Shown: positions 2,081 to 6,840, numbered from the stretch's first letter. The stretch: 6,915 nucleotides of DNA from a virus (IMGVR_UViG_3300000059_000098:1-6915); one strand, 5' to 3'. Numbers and translations are program-made. Notes: generated by a model from the letters alone, not told the origin.

Positions 2081-2146
2081 TGGCAAGCCCTCCGGTGAAA
2101 CGAGGAAAGACATTTCCAGTTTGTAAAACGTAAGAATAATAAAGGG

Positions 2147-2449
2147 TTAACCAATTTTCCTTTCGGATGGGGGTAAATCCGTTGGTTCTTGCCCATAGTG
2201 TGCGAGAGCCGGAGCTATCTGCCCGGATTCAGGCGCAATTTTTCCAGTCATAAACCACAACGCATATTTCTCAAATCTGGGGTTATTTAGTATTTGCTCA
2301 ATTACTTCAGCATTAGGGATGGTTTTACCGCTTTCATATCTCCACAGAGCATCACGGTTTAAACCAAGCATTTTTGCTGTATCCGGGAGGCTAGTAAGTC
2401 TCTCGCTTTCACGCATGATTTTTATGCGTTCTCCAATAGTCATACGCAT
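2147..2449 (-). CDS. C: P2 C-type immunity repressor (about 100 aa, HTH)
   Basis: Minus-strand ORF upstream of and co-oriented with int. Translation MRMTIGERIKIMRESERLTSLPDTAKMLGLNRDALWRYESGKTIP...FEKYALWFMTGKIAPESGQIAPALAHYGQ matches my recollection of the 99-aa P2 C repressor in length, HTH position and the C-terminal IAPESGQIAPALAH segment. Start set at the first ATG (2449), which has GGAGAA 7 nt upstream; the track starts at a TTG at 2464. Confidence 0.8.
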   Translation of the reverse strand: MRMTIGERIKIMRESERLTSLPDTAKMLGLNRDALWRYESGKTIPNAEVIEQILNNPRFEKYALWFMTGKIAPESGQIAPALAHYGQEPTDLPPSERKIG

Positions 2450-2544
2450 GTTGCAATTCTCCAACGTCTGTATTAATGTTTATACAAATGAGTTTGATTT
2501 GGGGCATCCGTCGCAAGAAATACCCCAAACAGGGAGATTATCAC
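2450..2544. promoter_or_regulatory. Divergent switch region between the repressor (leftward) and cox (rightward); expected Pc/Pe promoters and operators
   Basis: 95-bp AT-rich intergenic region between divergent genes. A candidate rightward promoter is TTGCAA (2451-2456) with ATTAAT 16 nt downstream (2473-2478). A 7-bp inverted repeat tttgggg (2498-2504) / ccccaaa (2523-2529) sits just upstream of the cox ribosome-binding site. Operator assignments are not resolved. Confidence 0.5.
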
Positions 2545-2871
2545 ATGAATGAAGAACTATTGAGGGCATTGTTTAAGATCCCAGACCCCATCACCGTCGA
2601 TGAGTTTTCCCGCCGCACAGGTAAGACCGAATCAGCCGTAAGAAAGTTGGTAGAGCGTCGACTCATCCCTCTAACTACTGAGCGCGAGGTTTTAGGCGAG
2701 GAAGGGAGTTCGCGCCGTCTTCTCATCCTTTGGAATGAGTGGCTCGAAATGGTCTATGACGCAACGAAACAGCTTCCTCCTGAGCGTAAAGATTGGCGCA
2801 ATCACTGGCTTAAGAAAGCCAAGAAGCTGGCGGAAGATTTGGGATTAGGCTTTCTTAATTTTGCTGCATGA
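2545..2871 (+). CDS. cox: Cox-like excisionase / early-promoter regulator (108 aa)
   Basis: ATG at 2545 with AGGGAGA 7 nt upstream; first gene of the rightward operon, divergent from the repressor as in P2. The segment ITVDEFSRRTGKTESAVRKLVERRLIP resembles the Cox/excisionase HTH, and later ILWNEWLEMVY and PPERKDWRNHW resemble corresponding P2 Cox segments (from memory). Confidence 0.65.
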   Translation: MNEELLRALFKIPDPITVDEFSRRTGKTESAVRKLVERRLIPLTTEREVLGEEGSSRRLLILWNEWLEMVYDATKQLPPERKDWRNHWLKKAKKLAEDLGLGFLNFAA

Positions 2872-2889
2872 GATGCAGGGAGTTTTGAT

Positions 2890-3231
2890 ATGAAACAGCA
2901 ACGTAATTCACGCTTTCGTAATGGTGCTGAACGTCACGCTAACCGTTTCGCTACCAGTGCATCACGCAGCAACATCCGCTACAGCCTGAGCGATACACAC
3001 GCAACGCCGGATGGCTACCCTGTAAAACAAATCGGTGAGCATGCCTGGCTGATTGAAAAAGCTGGAATCGTGGTCCACAAATGCCCACGCAATCCGTTTA
3101 CCGGAAACCGCATTTTTGCATTGAGCTGCGGCGACAATCAGTTCGGGCAGGATTTCACATTATACGAAGCACTTCGCACGGTTGATCGTCTGCTTCGCGG
3201 ACAAAGTTTTATTAAACAGGTTGATTTATAA
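2890..3231 (+). CDS. Hypothetical protein, 113 aa, basic N-terminus
   Basis: ORF with AGGGAG 7 nt upstream of the ATG, 18 bp after the cox stop. No motif I recognise. Confidence 0.7.
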   Translation: MKQQRNSRFRNGAERHANRFATSASRSNIRYSLSDTHATPDGYPVKQIGEHAWLIEKAGIVVHKCPRNPFTGNRIFALSCGDNQFGQDFTLYEALRTVDRLLRGQSFIKQVDL

Positions 3232-3241
3232 CAGGTGATTT

Positions 3242-3520
3242 ATGACCAAAGAGTATGCACAAGGTGTATTTATCCGTTTTATTGATTTTCGCGGTGAACT
3301 GTTGTTACGTGCATCAGCTATTGATGCTGTAGCCCAGGCAGAAAAAAAAGCAGTTACTCACGTTTATGCGAACAACGCGCAACTGATCGTGGAGCTTCCG
3401 TACCAGACTGTACGTGAAGCCATTAGCGAAGCTGAAAAGGCACGTCAGATTAATAGCGATGAACCATACATCGAAATTATCTGCATGGATTCAAAAGCAG
3501 AAATCCAGAAGGCAGATTAA
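3242..3520 (+). CDS. Hypothetical protein, 92 aa
   Basis: ORF 10 bp after the previous stop with a GGTGA Shine-Dalgarno-like sequence; the same strand and tight packing support it as coding. Confidence 0.7.
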   Translation: MTKEYAQGVFIRFIDFRGELLLRASAIDAVAQAEKKAVTHVYANNAQLIVELPYQTVREAISEAEKARQINSDEPYIEIICMDSKAEIQKAD

Positions 3521-3531
3521 AGGGCGTTGCA

Positions 3532-3774
3532 ATGGACCAGGAATACAAAACTCTCGTCAATAAAGCACTTGAGCGCTTTCATTTTCGCATAAGCGCATCA
3601 GGCACTCATGCTGAGCTCGCAGCCCGAGAGTCATTGACCAGGGCCATCAAGAGTATATACGACACAGCTTTTTACATTGACGACCCGGACGCGCTCGACG
3701 AGCTTTCCATACTCGTCTGCGCCGCAGAAAACGGGGACCATATTGAGCCATATAAACTGGGGAATATTGCATGA
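3532..3774 (+). CDS. Hypothetical protein, 80 aa, acidic
   Basis: ORF 11 bp after the previous stop; its stop overlaps the start of the next small ORF (ATGA). Confidence 0.7.
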   Translation: MDQEYKTLVNKALERFHFRISASGTHAELAARESLTRAIKSIYDTAFYIDDPDALDELSILVCAAENGDHIEPYKLGNIA

Positions 3775-3884
3775 GTATATTTATCTCATGGCTTGTTCTG
3801 ATTATTTCGGTGGCCTGCGCCATTGGGATTATGCGAATTATTCATTCAGTAAAAAAGATTGAACGCTTTTTCACTGGTGAATAA
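3771..3884 (+). CDS. Small hydrophobic membrane peptide, 37 aa (MSIFISWLVLIISVACAIGIMRIIHSVKKIERFFTGE)
   Basis: ATG at 3771 overlaps the stop of the upstream gene (ATGA), with GGGGAA 7 nt upstream. It has one predicted transmembrane helix followed by a basic tail. Below the ORF-track size cutoff. Confidence 0.5.
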   Translation: MSIFISWLVLIISVACAIGIMRIIHSVKKIERFFTGE

Positions 3885-3977
3885 CGATACAAATAAAACA
3901 TCAAATTAAATAAGAAAACGTGAAAACCATCCGTATTAACGGAGGTATTCGCACACGAAAATAACGGAGATACAAAA
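3885..3977 (+). promoter_or_regulatory. AT-rich intergenic region with direct repeat TAACGGAG x2; possible internal promoter or regulator site
   Basis: 93-bp non-coding gap inside an otherwise tightly packed operon. TAACGGAG occurs at 3937-3944 and 3963-3970; the second copy supplies the Shine-Dalgarno sequence for the ORF at 3978. Confidence 0.25.
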
Positions 3978-4388
3978 ATGCACGCAAAAGAAGAAGGTAT
4001 CATCAGAGCACTGAAAGAAATTTCAAAGACAGAAAACGAAGTAGCGAAAAAAGCCATAGCAAATAATCATATGGACGTCGCAACCCACACACTGATAGTC
4101 GCAAGAGTCACGGCAGAAGCAGCCGAAATTATCGCACAACAGGATGCTGAACTGGCGGTTCTCAGAACACAACCAGTCACCGGACTGGATTTGTCTAACA
4201 CCGGACGCCTTATTTACACAATTGGCTCGGAGCTACAGCGATACACCATTATCGCCGGGTTACAGGATAAATACCTGATCACTCCTCACCCCATAAGGGA
4301 ATCAGAAATTCTGACAAATCTCCGCCTGATAGAGCGCTCTCAAGTCGCATTCATTGATGACGCACAGTGCACCGTATTTAACGCATAG
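3978..4388 (+). CDS. Hypothetical protein, 136 aa
   Basis: ORF with GGAGA 7 nt upstream. No motif I recognise. Confidence 0.75.
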   Translation: MHAKEEGIIRALKEISKTENEVAKKAIANNHMDVATHTLIVARVTAEAAEIIAQQDAELAVLRTQPVTGLDLSNTGRLIYTIGSELQRYTIIAGLQDKYLITPHPIRESEILTNLRLIERSQVAFIDDAQCTVFNA

Positions 4389-4411
4389 GGTTACTGGACA
4401 AAGGGGGCGCA

Positions 4412-4615
4412 ATGGCAATTAAGCATTTTCCCGTCGTTCGCTTTACCTCCAGAGGGCGCGAATACGAGGTCGACGAACGCCTGATTACCACTATCGACAA
4501 ACATCGTTCGGAAAAGGATGCACACCACATCTACCTCACTGACGGCACTTACTTCTGCGCCACGAATGTGGTGCGGGTGAACCTTATCCGACAGGTACAG
4601 GAGTCACGCAGATGA
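4412..4615 (+). CDS. Hypothetical protein, 67 aa
   Basis: ORF with AAGGGGG upstream; first of six consecutive genes that each overlap the next by ATGA. Confidence 0.7.
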   Translation: MAIKHFPVVRFTSRGREYEVDERLITTIDKHRSEKDAHHIYLTDGTYFCATNVVRVNLIRQVQESRR

Positions 4616-4878
4616 CCATTCTGGACTATATCGCTACTCATCCGGGTTGTAGCGGCGGAGAAATCGCCGCAGCACTGAATACTCCAACCACAGCCATTAA
4701 TGCTGAGTTACGCCGACTTTGGCGCAGCGGCTTAGTCATCAGAACAAACCGCAGCACAGGTGGTCACGCTCGCAAAACAGGAGGCCGGGCTTCTTACCAC
4801 GTAAACCCGATGCCGTTCGGGTGTGGCAACCCACTAACCCACATGTTTAACCAGCTACTGAAGGAAGCCAGAGCATGA
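4612..4878 (+). CDS. Small predicted winged-helix DNA-binding protein, 88 aa
   Basis: ATGA overlap with the upstream gene; AGGAG 8 nt upstream. The segment GEIAAALNTPTTAINAELRRLWRSGLVIRT looks like a helix-turn-helix plus wing. Fold assignment is by eye only. Confidence 0.7.
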   Translation: MTILDYIATHPGCSGGEIAAALNTPTTAINAELRRLWRSGLVIRTNRSTGGHARKTGGRASYHVNPMPFGCGNPLTHMFNQLLKEARA

Positions 4879-4997
4879 GCACCATCAACCACCAGGAACC
4901 ACGCGAACTGGCGACTGCCGTACAAAGAATGTCTACCCAAAAATCACTGCCATTCCGTGTGAGCCCTGTCCGACGGGTACAGGAGTCACACGGATGA
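4875..4997 (+). CDS. Small ORF, 40 aa (MSTINHQEPRELATAVQRMSTQKSLPFRVSPVRRVQESHG)
   Basis: ATGA overlap at both ends; AAGGAAG 7 nt upstream. Its C-terminus and 3' end duplicate those of the 67-aa gene. Below the ORF-track size cutoff. Confidence 0.45.
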   Translation: MSTINHQEPRELATAVQRMSTQKSLPFRVSPVRRVQESHG

Positions 4998-5212
4998 ACA
5001 GAAGGAGAATTACACGCAGACATCGCCGCACGCGCCTGAGCTCCCCGCCAACACTAAAGGAACTCATTCAAAGCGAGATCGGTGATTTCTTCGCTGGGTT
5101 TGGATCACCTAGCGAACCAGAAACACCAGAAGCGATGCAGCGCGAACTCATGATGCGCATCGATAACGTTTTTGACTTTTTCCTGAATAACAAAAGAGAG
5201 CAACCGACATGA
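4994..5212 (+). CDS. Hypothetical protein, 72 aa, arginine-rich N-terminus (MNRRRITRRHRRTR) and acidic C-terminal half
   Basis: ATGA overlap with the upstream gene; AGGAG 8 nt upstream. Confidence 0.65.
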   Translation: MNRRRITRRHRRTRLSSPPTLKELIQSEIGDFFAGFGSPSEPETPEAMQRELMMRIDNVFDFFLNNKREQPT

Positions 5213-5421
5213 ACGAAAAGACCTGGTTTCGCGCATACATGTGGGCGCTGGTATGCGTCCTCTTTTCTCTCATTCTGTATGCGGGACTACTCCCCCGAAT
5301 GATTTCATCAGACAGCTCCTTCCTGGTATTGCTGGGCATTTTTGTCGCCTTGCTGTACCCGGCGGGCGTTGTCCGCTTTTTCAGTAACTACATCAAAGCA
5401 ACTATGGAAACCAAACAATGA
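5209..5421 (+). CDS. Small integral membrane protein, 70 aa, two predicted TM helices
   Basis: ATGA overlaps at both ends. Hydrophobic segments WALVCVLFSLILYAGLL and FLVLLGIFVALLYPAGVV. Confidence 0.7.
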   Translation: MNEKTWFRAYMWALVCVLFSLILYAGLLPRMISSDSSFLVLLGIFVALLYPAGVVRFFSNYIKATMETKQ

Positions 5422-6242
5422 AAAAACTATTACCACTCATCCCTCTCCTGATGACCACACTTCTGGTTGGCTGTGACCGCGTGGAGCCGGGCAATGTAGG
5501 CATCAAAGTCAACAAACTGGGCGACGACAAAGGCGTCGGTGAAGTGGTTGGCGTTGGCCGCTACTGGACAGGCTGGAATACCGAGGTTTACATCTTCCCG
5601 ACCTTCAAACAAATGAAGACCTACGATGAGCCGTTCAGCTTTCAGATGAGTGACGGCACAACCATCGGCTATCACATCGGTGTGGCCTACAAGGTTGATC
5701 CATCCAAAGTTACTACAGTGTTTCAGACCTACCGCAAAGGCGTGGATGACATTACCGACACTGACCTGCGCCAGAAGATCGCCGATGCACTCAACCGACT
5801 GGCCAGCAAAATGACCACCGATAAGTTTATCGACGGTGGTAAGTCTGAACTGCTGGACTCAGCACTTAAAGATATTCAGGAAGAGATGACCCCCATCGGC
5901 ATTCAGGTCATGAGCCTCTCTTATGTCGGTAAACCGGAATATCCGCCAACCGTTATTGACAGCATTAACGCCAAAGTCACGGCAAACCAGAAAACCCTGC
6001 AACGCGAACAGGAAGTCAAGCAACGCGAAGCAGAAGCCAACATGCTGCGCGCAGAAGCTGCCGGACAGGCTGATGCCATTCGCACAAAAGCCCAGGCTGA
6101 AGCCGACGCCATTCGTTTACGCGGTGAAGCTCTGCGCCAGAATCCCGGCGTTATGGAGCTGGAAGCAATCAACAAATGGAACGGCACGCTGCCGCAATAC
6201 ATGACCAGCAACACCGCTGTTCCGTTTGTTCCGGTGAAGTAA
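5418..6242 (+). CDS. SPFH / band-7 (stomatin-prohibitin-flotillin-HflK/C) domain lipoprotein, 274 aa
   Basis: The N-terminus MKKLLPLIPLLMTTLLVGC-D has a signal peptide with lipobox LVGC and Asp at +2, predicting an inner-membrane lipoprotein. The body has SPFH-like composition and ends in an Ala/Glu/Arg/Gln-rich coiled-coil-like tail, as in HflK/HflC-type proteins. Confidence 0.85.
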   Translation: MKKLLPLIPLLMTTLLVGCDRVEPGNVGIKVNKLGDDKGVGEVVGVGRYWTGWNTEVYIFPTFKQMKTYDEPFSFQMSDGTTIGYHIGVAYKVDPSKVTTVFQTYRKGVDDITDTDLRQKIADALNRLASKMTTDKFIDGGKSELLDSALKDIQEEMTPIGIQVMSLSYVGKPEYPPTVIDSINAKVTANQKTLQREQEVKQREAEANMLRAEAAGQADAIRTKAQAEADAIRLRGEALRQNPGVMELEAINKWNGTLPQYMTSNTAVPFVPVK

Positions 6243-6248
6243 TTAAAC

Positions 6249-6273
6249 CCGGCCAGTGAAAATCGCTGGCCGG
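6249..6273 (+). other. Stem-loop after the SPFH gene (8-bp perfect stem, 9-nt loop)
   Basis: ccggccag (6249-6256) / ctggccgg (6266-6273). A T6 run follows only at 6287-6292, so it is not a canonical intrinsic terminator. Confidence 0.3.
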
Positions 6274-6319
6274 AGCAGTATCAGGATTTTTTAGTATGCC
6301 GTTCTCACAAAAAAACCGC

Positions 6320-6349
6320 TTGCCATGCCTCAATAGGTCAGGTTACATT
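6320..6349 (+). promoter_or_regulatory. Candidate promoter for the antisense-RNA / icd-like transcript
   Basis: TTGCCA (6320-6325), 18-nt spacer, TACATT (6344-6349). A moderate match only; placed just upstream of the first sense target block. Confidence 0.3.
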
Positions 6350-6380
6350 TCCGCTGCACCTCATAAAACGGGTGCCGGGA

Positions 6381-6404
6381 TTCTCAACCCGACACAGAGC
6401 AAAG
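6381..6404 (+). promoter_or_regulatory. Upstream sense target pair (a1/b1-like) for the c4-like RNA
   Basis: ttctcaac (6381-6388) and agagcaaag (6396-6404) are exact reverse complements of gttgagaa (6524-6531) and ctttgctct (6510-6518). Confidence 0.4.
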
Positions 6405-6410
6405 CGCATA

Positions 6411-6431
6411 ACCGCGCAAGCGGTTTTTTTG
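6411..6431 (+). terminator. Short hairpin with GCAA tetraloop and U7 tract; possible terminator or attenuator
   Basis: accgc-gcaa-gcggt followed by ttttttt (6425-6431). The 3' arm can alternatively pair long-range with accgcttgc at 6315-6323. Confidence 0.35.
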
Positions 6432-6471
6432 TGCGTACTGTATCGCCACGTCTTTTTCGCGTCAGAATTAT

Positions 6472-6547
6472 GGCGGGGCGTACGGGGCCGACTTTGGTCG
6501 GGCCGGATTCTTTGCTCTCCGGTGTTGAGAACCCTGTACGTCTCGCC
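6472..6547 (+). ncRNA. Candidate c4 / CI-type antisense immunity RNA (76 nt)
   Basis: ggcggggcgtacgggg (6472-6487) pairs with ccctgtacgtctcgcc (6532-6547) as a 16-bp closing stem with three G-U pairs. Inside are a 5-bp hairpin (6488-6501) and a second hairpin (6503-6507 / 6518-6522) whose loop carries ctttgctc, followed by single-stranded gttgagaa. These two segments are exactly complementary to two sites repeated upstream (6381-6404) and at the RBS of the downstream ORF (6557-6601). Confidence 0.45.
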
Positions 6548-6556
6548 ACCCCGAGA

Positions 6557-6602
6557 TTCTCAACTCTGGATGGTGAGTTATTTCTATCACCGAGCAAAGA
6601 GG
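6557..6602 (+). promoter_or_regulatory. Downstream sense target pair (a2/b2-like) overlapping the ribosome-binding site of the 76-aa ORF
   Basis: ttctcaac (6557-6564) and gagcaaagag (6592-6601); the second block covers the AAGAGG Shine-Dalgarno sequence at 6597-6602, 7 nt before the ATG at 6610. Confidence 0.4.
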
Positions 6603-6609
6603 CCACACC

Positions 6610-6840
6610 ATGGCAAACCGCAAACAGCACCGCGCTATCGCGGAGCGTCGTCACATCCAGACTGAAATCAACCGCAGACTTTCCCGCGCATTCCGCGTCG
6701 CTAAAATCATGCACATCAATATGTTGCATGAGCGTAGCTGCGAACTTTCAAACCTCTATTCATCCGCTGTTTTCAGCTATCTGGCGGATGATCTGCGCGA
6801 GCTTCAGCAGCTCATTCAGCAGCAAAACAAACTCCATTAA
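6610..6840 (+). CDS. Small basic protein, 76 aa; possibly an Icd-like first gene of an antirepressor operon
   Basis: ORF with a strong AAGAGG 7 nt upstream. Its position directly after a c4-like RNA and its target sites parallels the P1 c4-icd-ant layout. Functional assignment is by context only. Confidence 0.6.
   Translation: MANRKQHRAIAERRHIQTEINRRLSRAFRVAKIMHINMLHERSCELSNLYSSAVFSYLADDLRELQQLIQQQNKLH

Follow-up and report, generated by a model that had tools for sequence, protein, structure and literature searches.

Six overlapping open reading frames in a P88-like prophage appear to be a three-piece mosaic that ends in a mobile membrane protein-SPFH lipoprotein pair

The window analysed here, i.e. 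a stretch of 6,915 nucleotides (nt) of viral DNA (IMGVR_UViG_3300000059_000098:1-6915), contains six consecutive open reading frames (ORFs) on its plus strand, which we refer to as ORF1 to ORF6 (Table 1). A sequence-only reading of this region had described the six ORFs as one translationally coupled operon encoding an accessory system of the cell envelope, and both the coordinates it gave and the four-base ATGA overlap it read at each of the five junctions proved exact. The new six-gene envelope system itself does not stand. Comparison with related phages and prophages rather indicates that the ORFs are three pieces with separate histories, i.e. two lineage-specific early genes (ORF1 and ORF2), the product of a crossover within a third gene (ORF3 and ORF4), and a mobile pair that encodes a small two-helix membrane protein and an SPFH lipoprotein (ORF5 and ORF6). 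The stretch may thus be regarded as a mosaic of a common prophage early operon in which one apparent gene is a scar left by recombination.

The window matches E. coli chromosomes from end to end with ~96% identity. In E. coli C11, whose genome is 96% identical, pheA and the pheL leader are followed by genes for a tyrosine integrase and a helix-turn-helix repressor, by a run of small rightward genes and finally by the replication endonuclease, ParM and portal genes, and the same gene run is found in phage P88 (Xuanwuvirus, P2 family, Peduoviridae). From the end-to-end match, the synteny with C11 and P88 and the Rfam and Pfam matches we thus infer that the window comprises E. coli pheA/pheL and, next to pheA, the left end of a prophage that resembles P88 (Xuanwuvirus, P2 family). 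A rightward cox-like gene (Pfam Phage_Cox, E = 1.3e-5; 25.3 bits, slightly below the cut-off of 27.5) faces the leftward genes for the C repressor and the integrase, and this arrangement, together with the synteny through the replication endonuclease and ParM, is that of an early operon of the P2 family (Xuanwuvirus). Between the cox-like gene and the stop codon of the SPFH gene 12 ORFs follow each other with no gap larger than 93 nt; the tight packing thus starts already at 2545, an ATGA overlap occurs already at 3771, and in close relatives the early operon extends on to the replication endonuclease. The operon limits assumed in the sequence-only reading are therefore wrong, and the six ORFs most probably form the middle segment of the rightward early operon of the prophage.

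Phage P88 is the closest known counterpart. Its genes gp08 to gp12 encode an ORF1-like protein, a winged-helix protein, gp10, a two-helix membrane protein and an SPFH lipoprotein in the order of the window, with 80-97% identity to the window's proteins and with the same ATGA junctions, and beyond the pair P88 continues, as does the window, with the isrK/C4 region and the derepression gene, followed in P88 by the replication endonuclease. P88 differs in that it contains a single intact gp10 of 104 amino acids (aa) where the window has ORF3 and the short ORF4, and in that it lacks the 136-aa ORF that precedes ORF1 in the window. Furthermore, the cox-like genes of P88 and the window are unrelated by the search made.

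Table 1. Features of the window and the matches or observations on which their assignment is based
Feature	Position	Strand	Basis or remark
Phe leader of pheA	799-924	minus	Rfam, 132 bits
Integrase	1091-2113	minus	Pfam Phage_integrase
C repressor	2147-2464	minus	Pfam HTH repressor
cox-like gene, first of rightward early operon	2545-2871	plus	Pfam Phage_Cox; order as in P88 and E. coli C11
DUF4761 ORF	2890-3231	plus	Early operon
92-aa ORF	3242-3520	plus	Early operon
DUF4754 ORF	3532-3774	plus	Early operon
37-aa ORF	3771-3884	plus	ATGA overlap with preceding ORF
136-aa ORF	3978-4388	plus	phrog_9338; early operon, just 5' of ORF1
ORF1, 67-aa small all-beta early protein	4412-4615	plus	Confident all-beta model
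45-nt direct repeat, copy 1	4574-4618	plus	ORF1/ORF2 junction
ORF2, 88-aa minimal winged-helix (MarR-type) protein	4612-4878	plus	Pfam; phrog_1687
ORF3, 40-aa putative chimeric recombination scar	4875-4997	plus	phrog_4144, positions 1-30 only
45-nt direct repeat, copy 2	4956-5000	plus	Spans ORF3/ORF4 junction
ORF4, 72-aa short variant of gp10-like gene	4994-5212	plus	phrog_4144, positions 34-99
ORF5, 70-aa two-helix inner-membrane protein (predicted)	5209-5421	plus	Hydropathy; phrog_1130
ORF6, 274-aa SPFH/Band 7 lipoprotein (predicted)	5418-6242	plus	Pfam Band_7; phrog_200; AlphaFold model
Hairpin, 11-bp stem	6249-6273	plus	-22.4 kcal/mol, z = -4.2
U-run after hairpin	6287-6292	plus	3' end of two-gene module
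isrK-like RNA	6356-6430	plus	Rfam, 61.9 bits (cut-off 50)
C4 antisense RNA	6466-6553	plus	Rfam, 77.6 bits (cut-off 45)
'Derepression' gene	6610-6840	plus	Pfam Derepression

Five consecutive ATGA overlaps in a gapless, co-oriented array invite the view that all six products constitute one envelope-associated accessory system whose ratios are fixed by translational coupling. Overlaps of this kind are, however, not special, as the annotation of P88 contains them in 10 of 42 pairs of neighbouring genes on the same strand, lysis and baseplate genes among them. They thus show tight packing and are no argument for a complex of fixed stoichiometry. Moreover, the six ORFs do not behave as a single inherited unit. 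The proteins of the window were mapped onto 80 viral contigs encoding the SPFH protein, and the 58 P88-like loci with the ORF5-ORF6 pair fall into three layouts: 40 contain ORF1, ORF2, an intact gene of 98-104 aa, ORF5 and ORF6 (type A), 12 contain ORF1 followed directly by the 72-aa ORF4, ORF5 and ORF6, with neither ORF2 nor ORF3 (type B), and only 6 exhibit the layout of the window with all six ORFs (type C). The same holds for 5426 complete E. coli genomes, where, at a coverage of at least 80%, ORF1 and ORF2 are found in 1181, the P88-type ORF5 and ORF6 in 145, and the split ORF3/ORF4 layout in 16. Conservation as a cassette, on which the sequence-only reading had itself made its case depend, is thus not observed. 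As ORF3 is probably a chimeric scar and the pair travels alone into unrelated phages (see below), the view of a single six-component system appears largely refuted by the comparative data, and we regard it as very improbable. What stands of the envelope proposal is that ORF5 and ORF6 are predicted envelope proteins that belong together, as the partner adjoins the SPFH gene in related loci.

The region between ORF2 and ORF5 shows that the segment does not comprise six separate genes. ORF3 and ORF4 correspond to positions 1-30 and 34-99, respectively, of a single family of 99 positions, phrog_4144 (PHROGs), which in P88 is represented by the single gene gp10, and in E. coli C11 the NCBI annotation pipeline (PGAP) calls both the ORF3- and the ORF4-type ORF pseudogene fragments. 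Neither of the two has a match in Pfam, and for the intact gp10 of P88 the Ead/Ea22-like family (PF13935) stays below its cut-off (20.5 vs 27 bits) and covers 24 residues only. On the DNA level, bases 1-83 of ORF3 are 80% identical to the 5' end of P88 gp10, whereas from base 85 on the sequence matches the tail of ORF1 and the adjoining ORF4 of type B loci with 94.9% identity; this match covers window positions 4959-5212 and starts within the tail of the type B ORF1. ORF3 is thus composed of ~29 codons of a gp10-like 5' end and of ~11 final codons that come from the 3' end of a second ORF1 copy. As the left part of the segment is type A-like and the right part type B-like, we consider the window to be a recombinant. 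One parent would have carried ORF1, ORF2 and an intact gene of ~100 aa, the other ORF1 followed by ORF4, and the crossover would have left behind a chimeric scar of 40 aa, i.e. ORF3, together with a second copy of the ORF1 tail. The two copies of the 45-nt direct repeat, which are 82% identical, appear to mark the recombination joint, and the second copy seems to provide ORF4 with its ribosome-binding site and the ATGA. Since the tail of ORF1 carries its own ribosome site and ATGA, the scar gives the appearance of translational coupling, but this coupling would be inherited rather than designed. A truncated form of ORF3, 28 aa in length, is found in one relative.

ORF4, in contrast to the scar, is most likely a real gene. 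It is present as a 72-aa ORF in 11 of the 12 type B loci, and its arginine-rich N-terminus (MNRRRITRRHRRTR; 4994-5050) follows the pattern M-[NS]-R-[RK]-R-I-T-R-[RK]-H-R-R-T, which has been kept in two diverged type B lineages by way of synonymous codon changes. The stretch resembles the arginine-rich RNA-binding motifs of lambdoid N proteins.

ORF1 and ORF2 appear to be lineage-specific early genes. The ORF1 family comprises 63 protein clusters, nearly all labelled Escherichia, and seems to be limited to Escherichia prophages of the P88-like type; for its all-beta model no significant structural match was found. ORF2 had been recognized as winged-helix-like, which holds, with MarR_2 (30.4 bits, cut-off 27) and HTH_24 (24.8 bits, cut-off 21.9) both above their Pfam cut-offs. 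Full-size MarR proteins typically comprise ~140-150 aa, and with only 88 aa ORF2 is thus predicted to consist of just the DNA-binding core. Its absence from the type B loci suggests that it is dispensable. None of the defence models of PADLOC-DB v2 matches ORF1, ORF3, ORF4, ORF5 or ORF6, and ORF2 gives nothing but weak noise from helix-turn-helix models (E at best 0.005); in this search the last two products thus match no named defence or exclusion system. NCBIfam yields sub-threshold HflK/HflC matches for ORF6 and nothing useful for the other ORFs.

The third piece, ORF5 and ORF6, behaves as an insert. The similarity between the window and phages lacking the pair ends at the ATG of ORF5 and returns at ~6293, delimiting an insert of ~1.1 kb, and in Xuanwuviruses without the pair ORF1, ORF2 and the intact gp10-like gene are retained and directly followed by the RNA region that precedes the derepression gene. 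A moron would be an insert of variable presence with a promoter and a terminator of its own; for the pair, insert boundaries and a 3' hairpin were found but no promoter, and translation of ORF5 starts within the end of the preceding gene. ORF5 and ORF6 thus seem to be a mobile, optional two-gene module located between the gp10-like gene and the isrK/C4 region. In phage genomes in general they are plain members of two families, i.e. phrog_200, annotated as 'lipoprotein' or 'serine protease', and phrog_1130, an upstream 'membrane protein', and elsewhere such pairs differ from that of the window only in the host operon and in the variant of the partner.

The module is widespread. An SPFH gene (any match) is present in 576 of the 5426 complete E. 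coli genomes, i.e. about one in ten, on prophages and phage-plasmids, and SPFH homologues are found in 623 phage records. The pair occurs, with an ATGA overlap, between cI and xis/int of a lambdoid Stx2 phage, between tRNA genes and ban in P1-like phages, i.e. inside what in reference P1 is the C1-controlled ban operon, after the genes for SSB, an exonuclease and a RecA-like protein in SSU5-like phage-plasmids, in N4-like (Schitoviridae) phages of Erwinia, Klebsiella and Enterobacter, in the rV5-like (Vequintavirinae) phage PVP-SE1, in Vibrio phage CKB-S1 and in Burkholderia phage phiE125. In all inspected pair loci except that of PVP-SE1 the gene for the two-helix partner lies just upstream of the SPFH gene, either overlapping it or directly adjacent to it. 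The reverse check gave the same picture, as an SPFH gene directly follows the ORF5 homologue in all eight inspected phage loci found by tblastn with ORF5. The two proteins evolve differently: the SPFH lipoprotein is 69-97% identical across P2-like, lambdoid Stx2, P1-like and N4-like phages (~78% in SSU5), whereas the identity of the two-helix partner ranges from 21 to 88% across phage types. In Stx2-converting phages the DNA similarity to the window (92% identity) is limited to 5469-6208, i.e. to the mature SPFH part after the signal peptide, while signal peptide, partner gene and all flanks are unrelated. The recombination breakpoints are thus located inside the gene, and recombination seems to swap the mature lipoprotein between different partners.

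Some of these loci deserve a comment. In Salmonella phage PVP-SE1 (L091, 1091-2325) a soluble 54-aa protein, gp117, is encoded between the partner gp116 and the SPFH protein gp118, and gp120, located downstream, is a second two-helix membrane ORF. In the record of Klebsiella phage K17alpha62 (L103, 1501-2521) the two-helix and SPFH genes lie on the plus strand, and the complementary strand of this segment is annotated with pseudogene coding sequences, among them a 'tail length tape measure protein', which is probably a mis-annotation. The idea that plp/upl of P1 correspond to the pair was rejected, as plp encodes 125 aa and is located on the opposite strand in the reference P1 record; in P1-like variants the pair occupies the interval from the tRNA genes to ban, for which no plp, upl or tciABC is annotated.

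ORF6 combines a signal peptide containing the lipobox L-V-G-C with an Asp at position +2, an SPFH domain, a helix of ~65 residues and a C-terminal tail, so that its earlier designation as SPFH lipoprotein is correct. The SPFH domain is recognized by Pfam PF01145 (Band_7) with 108.4 bits (cut-off 23.6; E = 5.5e-31) over residues 21-207, the lipobox Cys19 is encoded by 5472-5474, and 93 of 120 homologues fit the strict pattern G-C-D-R-V-[EQ]-P-G, C-D-R being found also in most of the others shown. Attachment to the membrane via the lipobox is thus predicted. In the AlphaFold model (mean predicted local distance difference test, pLDDT, 75) residues 18-175 form an alpha/beta domain and residues 177-241 a helix of 65 residues. 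The top Foldseek matches of this model are erlin1/2, prohibitin, HflK/C, stomatin, flotillin, QmcA-YbbJ and vault, all of them cage-forming SPFH proteins, with E-values of 1e-13 to 1e-8 for erlin, prohibitin, HflK/C, stomatin and flotillin and with 14-18% sequence identity to solved SPFH proteins. Many GenBank phage records, e.g. those of the homologues at 3447-4274 of record L003 and at 4084-4914 of record L002, label the protein 'serine protease', but a protease domain was detected neither with Pfam nor with NCBIfam. The label is apparently an annotation error of long standing that presumably goes back to the former COG name 'membrane protease subunits, stomatin/prohibitin homologs'.

ORF5 contains two hydrophobic helices, as described before, and its charge distribution suggests that both ends are located in the cytoplasm; its short conserved loop thus probably lies at the periplasmic surface. 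A P-x-[LM]-[IV]-S motif at the end of the first helix is conserved, residues Y24, P29, S33, V40, G43 and P51 are invariant across six phage types, and the close relatives of ORF5 form 14 protein clusters in a word-indexed protein search. Two other assignments were rejected. The only hint at a holin is a match of the Stx2 variant to Holin_SPP1 (E = 0.17), and the lysis genes of P88 are located elsewhere; the match to RseC/MucC (16.7 bits, cut-off 24.4) involves only the hydrophobic helices.

An SPFH gene next to a co-oriented gene for a small membrane protein is also found in SPFH-NfeD operons such as QmcA-YbbJ of E. coli (PDB 8z5g). However, no NfeD match was obtained for ORF5 (E up to 0.1) or for four homologues from other phages (E up to 1), and ORF5 has only 70 aa, over most of which the helices extend, leaving no room for a soluble domain. 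As ORF5 lacks an NfeD domain, the pair does not qualify as an SPFH-NfeD operon of the classical type. Furthermore, QmcA is located on the cytoplasmic side, in contrast to the predicted periplasmic location of ORF6.

How might the pair act? In E. coli lipoprotein sorting, lipoproteins with Asp at position +2 stay in the inner membrane ('+2 rule'). Following this rule ORF6 would be exported, lipidated at Cys19 and retained in the inner membrane, with the SPFH domain facing the periplasm. There, SPFH domain and long helix may assemble into a ring or cage similar to that of HflK/C, which is located on the periplasmic face of the inner membrane, or to that of prohibitin. ORF5 would sit in the membrane below this cage, its conserved periplasmic loop serving as contact or being part of an enclosed client. 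The time of action may be deduced from the genomic contexts: the pair is found in repressor-controlled early operons of temperate phages as well as in early regions of N4-like and rV5-like phages, which are virulent groups with no lysogenic state, and it is thus taken to act early in lytic growth. Altogether, we consider it probable that the six ORFs are part of a three-piece mosaic early operon and that its periplasm-facing pair acts early in lytic growth.

An alternative is that the pair is made in the lysogen and protects it at the envelope, be it by superinfection exclusion, abortive infection or lysogenic conversion. Its variable presence and its own 3' hairpin, both known from morons, agree with such a role, as does the membrane location of both products; moreover, the interval from integrase to primase harbours ~8% of the known defence systems of P2-like phages (PMC13586616), and the frequency of the SPFH gene on E. 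coli prophages and phage-plasmids points in the same direction. Yet a crude consensus scan of the plus strand from 2140 to 6320 did not detect a promoter-like site, the start codon overlaps the upstream gene, and by synteny the pair lies within early operons in three temperate phage types, besides its occurrence in the virulent N4-like and rV5-like phages and the missing PADLOC match. We therefore regard lysogen-made protection as unlikely, and lysogenic conversion in particular, one of the options the sequence-only reading had offered, as less likely than was held there, since the pair is coupled into a repressor-controlled early operon.

HflK and HflC are the nearest sequence matches of ORF6 among solved structures and NCBIfam models, and the SPFH domain followed by a long helix on the predicted periplasmic side is a further likeness. 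ORF6 might thus mimic HflK/C at the periplasmic side of FtsH or compete with it, either alone or in mixed rings, and shift the stability of substrates. A role of this kind has been suggested by analogy in several genome papers, where an HflC-like function in lysogeny was guessed (PMC4936722; PMC10269572). The position of the Stx2 pair between cI and xis/int could also be seen in this light, as we interpret this interval as the leftward early operon; in lambda, cIII, an inhibitor of FtsH, is encoded in that operon. The resemblance is limited, however. The scores are far below the NCBIfam equivalog cut-offs (hflC, 25.7 vs 134.4 bits; hflK, 23.5 vs 159.4 bits), the sequence identity is as low as that to any other solved SPFH protein, and erlin and prohibitin score equally well in the structural comparison. 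HflK and HflC are anchored by an N-terminal transmembrane helix and encoded by a gene pair, whereas ORF6 is predicted to be lipid-anchored, is the single SPFH gene of the window and is paired with a small two-helix protein, which would be left without a role. Moreover, the gain for N4-like and rV5-like carriers is not obvious, and mimicry of HflK/C is thus improbable in our view.

A virulence or host-interaction function has been reported for an HflK/C-like prophage protein of the SPFH family, PM0222 of Pasteurella multocida, a virulence factor that is released in vesicles and elicits TLR1/2 signalling (PMC9872710). By analogy, ORF6, being a predicted lipoprotein with homologues in Stx2 phages of pathogenic E. 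coli, might serve a similar purpose. However, members of the family occur widely in phages that infect plant, soil and marine bacteria, N4-like and rV5-like ones included, and Asp at +2 favours retention in the inner membrane over surface exposure. We thus deem this possibility highly improbable.

For the early-acting, periplasm-facing pair the benefit to the phage may be one of several. Tentatively, we favour a shielding of the inner membrane of the infected cell, e.g. against DNA entry by superinfecting phages. This reading is based on a functional analogy with Imm and Spackle of phage T4, a small inner-membrane protein and a periplasmic protein that are made early and exclude superinfecting phages. 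No sequence or profile similarity between the two and the products of the window was found in Pfam and PADLOC searches; in contrast to ORF6, neither is an SPFH protein, and their genes are not adjacent. An alteration of FtsH-type membrane proteolysis is a rather unlikely benefit, and the remaining weight lies with functions of another kind. Going one step further, we speculate that the pair might be a pan-phage early inner-membrane module, shared by temperate and virulent groups, that builds a periplasm-facing SPFH cage, a role new for phages, and that acts as a general shield against the entry of DNA or attack on the membrane in infected cells or as an HflK/C substitute capturing FtsH, although this is doubtful. 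If true, the near-identical lipoprotein (69-97%) and the fast-diverging partners (21-88%) would represent a conserved scaffold with interchangeable adaptors.

Several points weigh against the picture of a mosaic operon with an early-acting, periplasm-facing pair. ORF3 could still be translated and be of some use. The promoter scan was a crude consensus search, i.e. a weak internal promoter that is active in lysogens may be present, and the hairpin 3' of ORF6 is terminator-like but non-canonical in its spacing. The retention of ORF6 in the inner membrane is derived from the '+2 rule', Arg at position +3 may weaken this retention, and more distant homologues contain Ser, Glu or Tyr at +2. In the ORF6 model the C-terminal 33 residues are of low confidence, and as a monomer model it carries no information on a cage. 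Furthermore, the partner diverges far faster than the lipoprotein, which is awkward for a tight specific complex, and SPFH homologues of Pseudomonas and Staphylococcus phages lack a two-helix partner.

The region is an instructive case of phage mosaicism, as the crossover seems to have placed a second copy of a gene tail into the middle of a gene, thereby mimicking a designed, coupled array of six genes and calling for caution when raw sequence is read. The pair is a widespread phage module, and the interest of the finding rests almost wholly on its function. A recent genome paper states that the presence of the SPFH gene in a phage 'remains unclear' (2026, PMC13239085), and full-text searches of the literature retrieved only genome papers noting the gene and no experimental function for a phage SPFH lipoprotein. 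Structures of cellular SPFH cages have been solved only since 2022, which makes the phage version a tractable question, although not an obvious long-standing one.

The remaining observations concern the flanks of the six ORFs. The integrase gene ends ~170 nt from the Phe leader, and no tRNA gene was found in the window; the attachment site is thus expected to adjoin pheL and not to lie within a tRNA gene. The 136-aa ORF constitutes a further variable slot, since ~20 P88-like loci, P88 included, lack a copy, and where it is present in P88-like loci the identity ranges from 34% to 100%.

Downstream of the pair, the isrK-like and C4 RNAs lie in the ~370-nt 'intergenic' stretch between the SPFH gene and the derepression gene. 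Both RNAs are retained in P88 as well as in relatives lacking the pair, and the region including the derepression gene looks like what we take to be an immI-type antisense control module of P1/P7 (c4-icd-ant), here in a P2-family prophage. Some pipelines annotate the isrK/C4 region as 'ash family' pseudogene or as coding sequence of a 'transcriptional regulator'. A promoter-like site, TTGCCA-18-TACATT, is located at 6320-6349. Finally, a 14-nt direct repeat is found inside the isrK-like RNA (CCGGGATTCTCAAC; 6375-6388) and just past the C4 RNA (CCGAGATTCTCAAC; 6551-6564), and its two copies could be paired target sites of the C4 antisense RNA.

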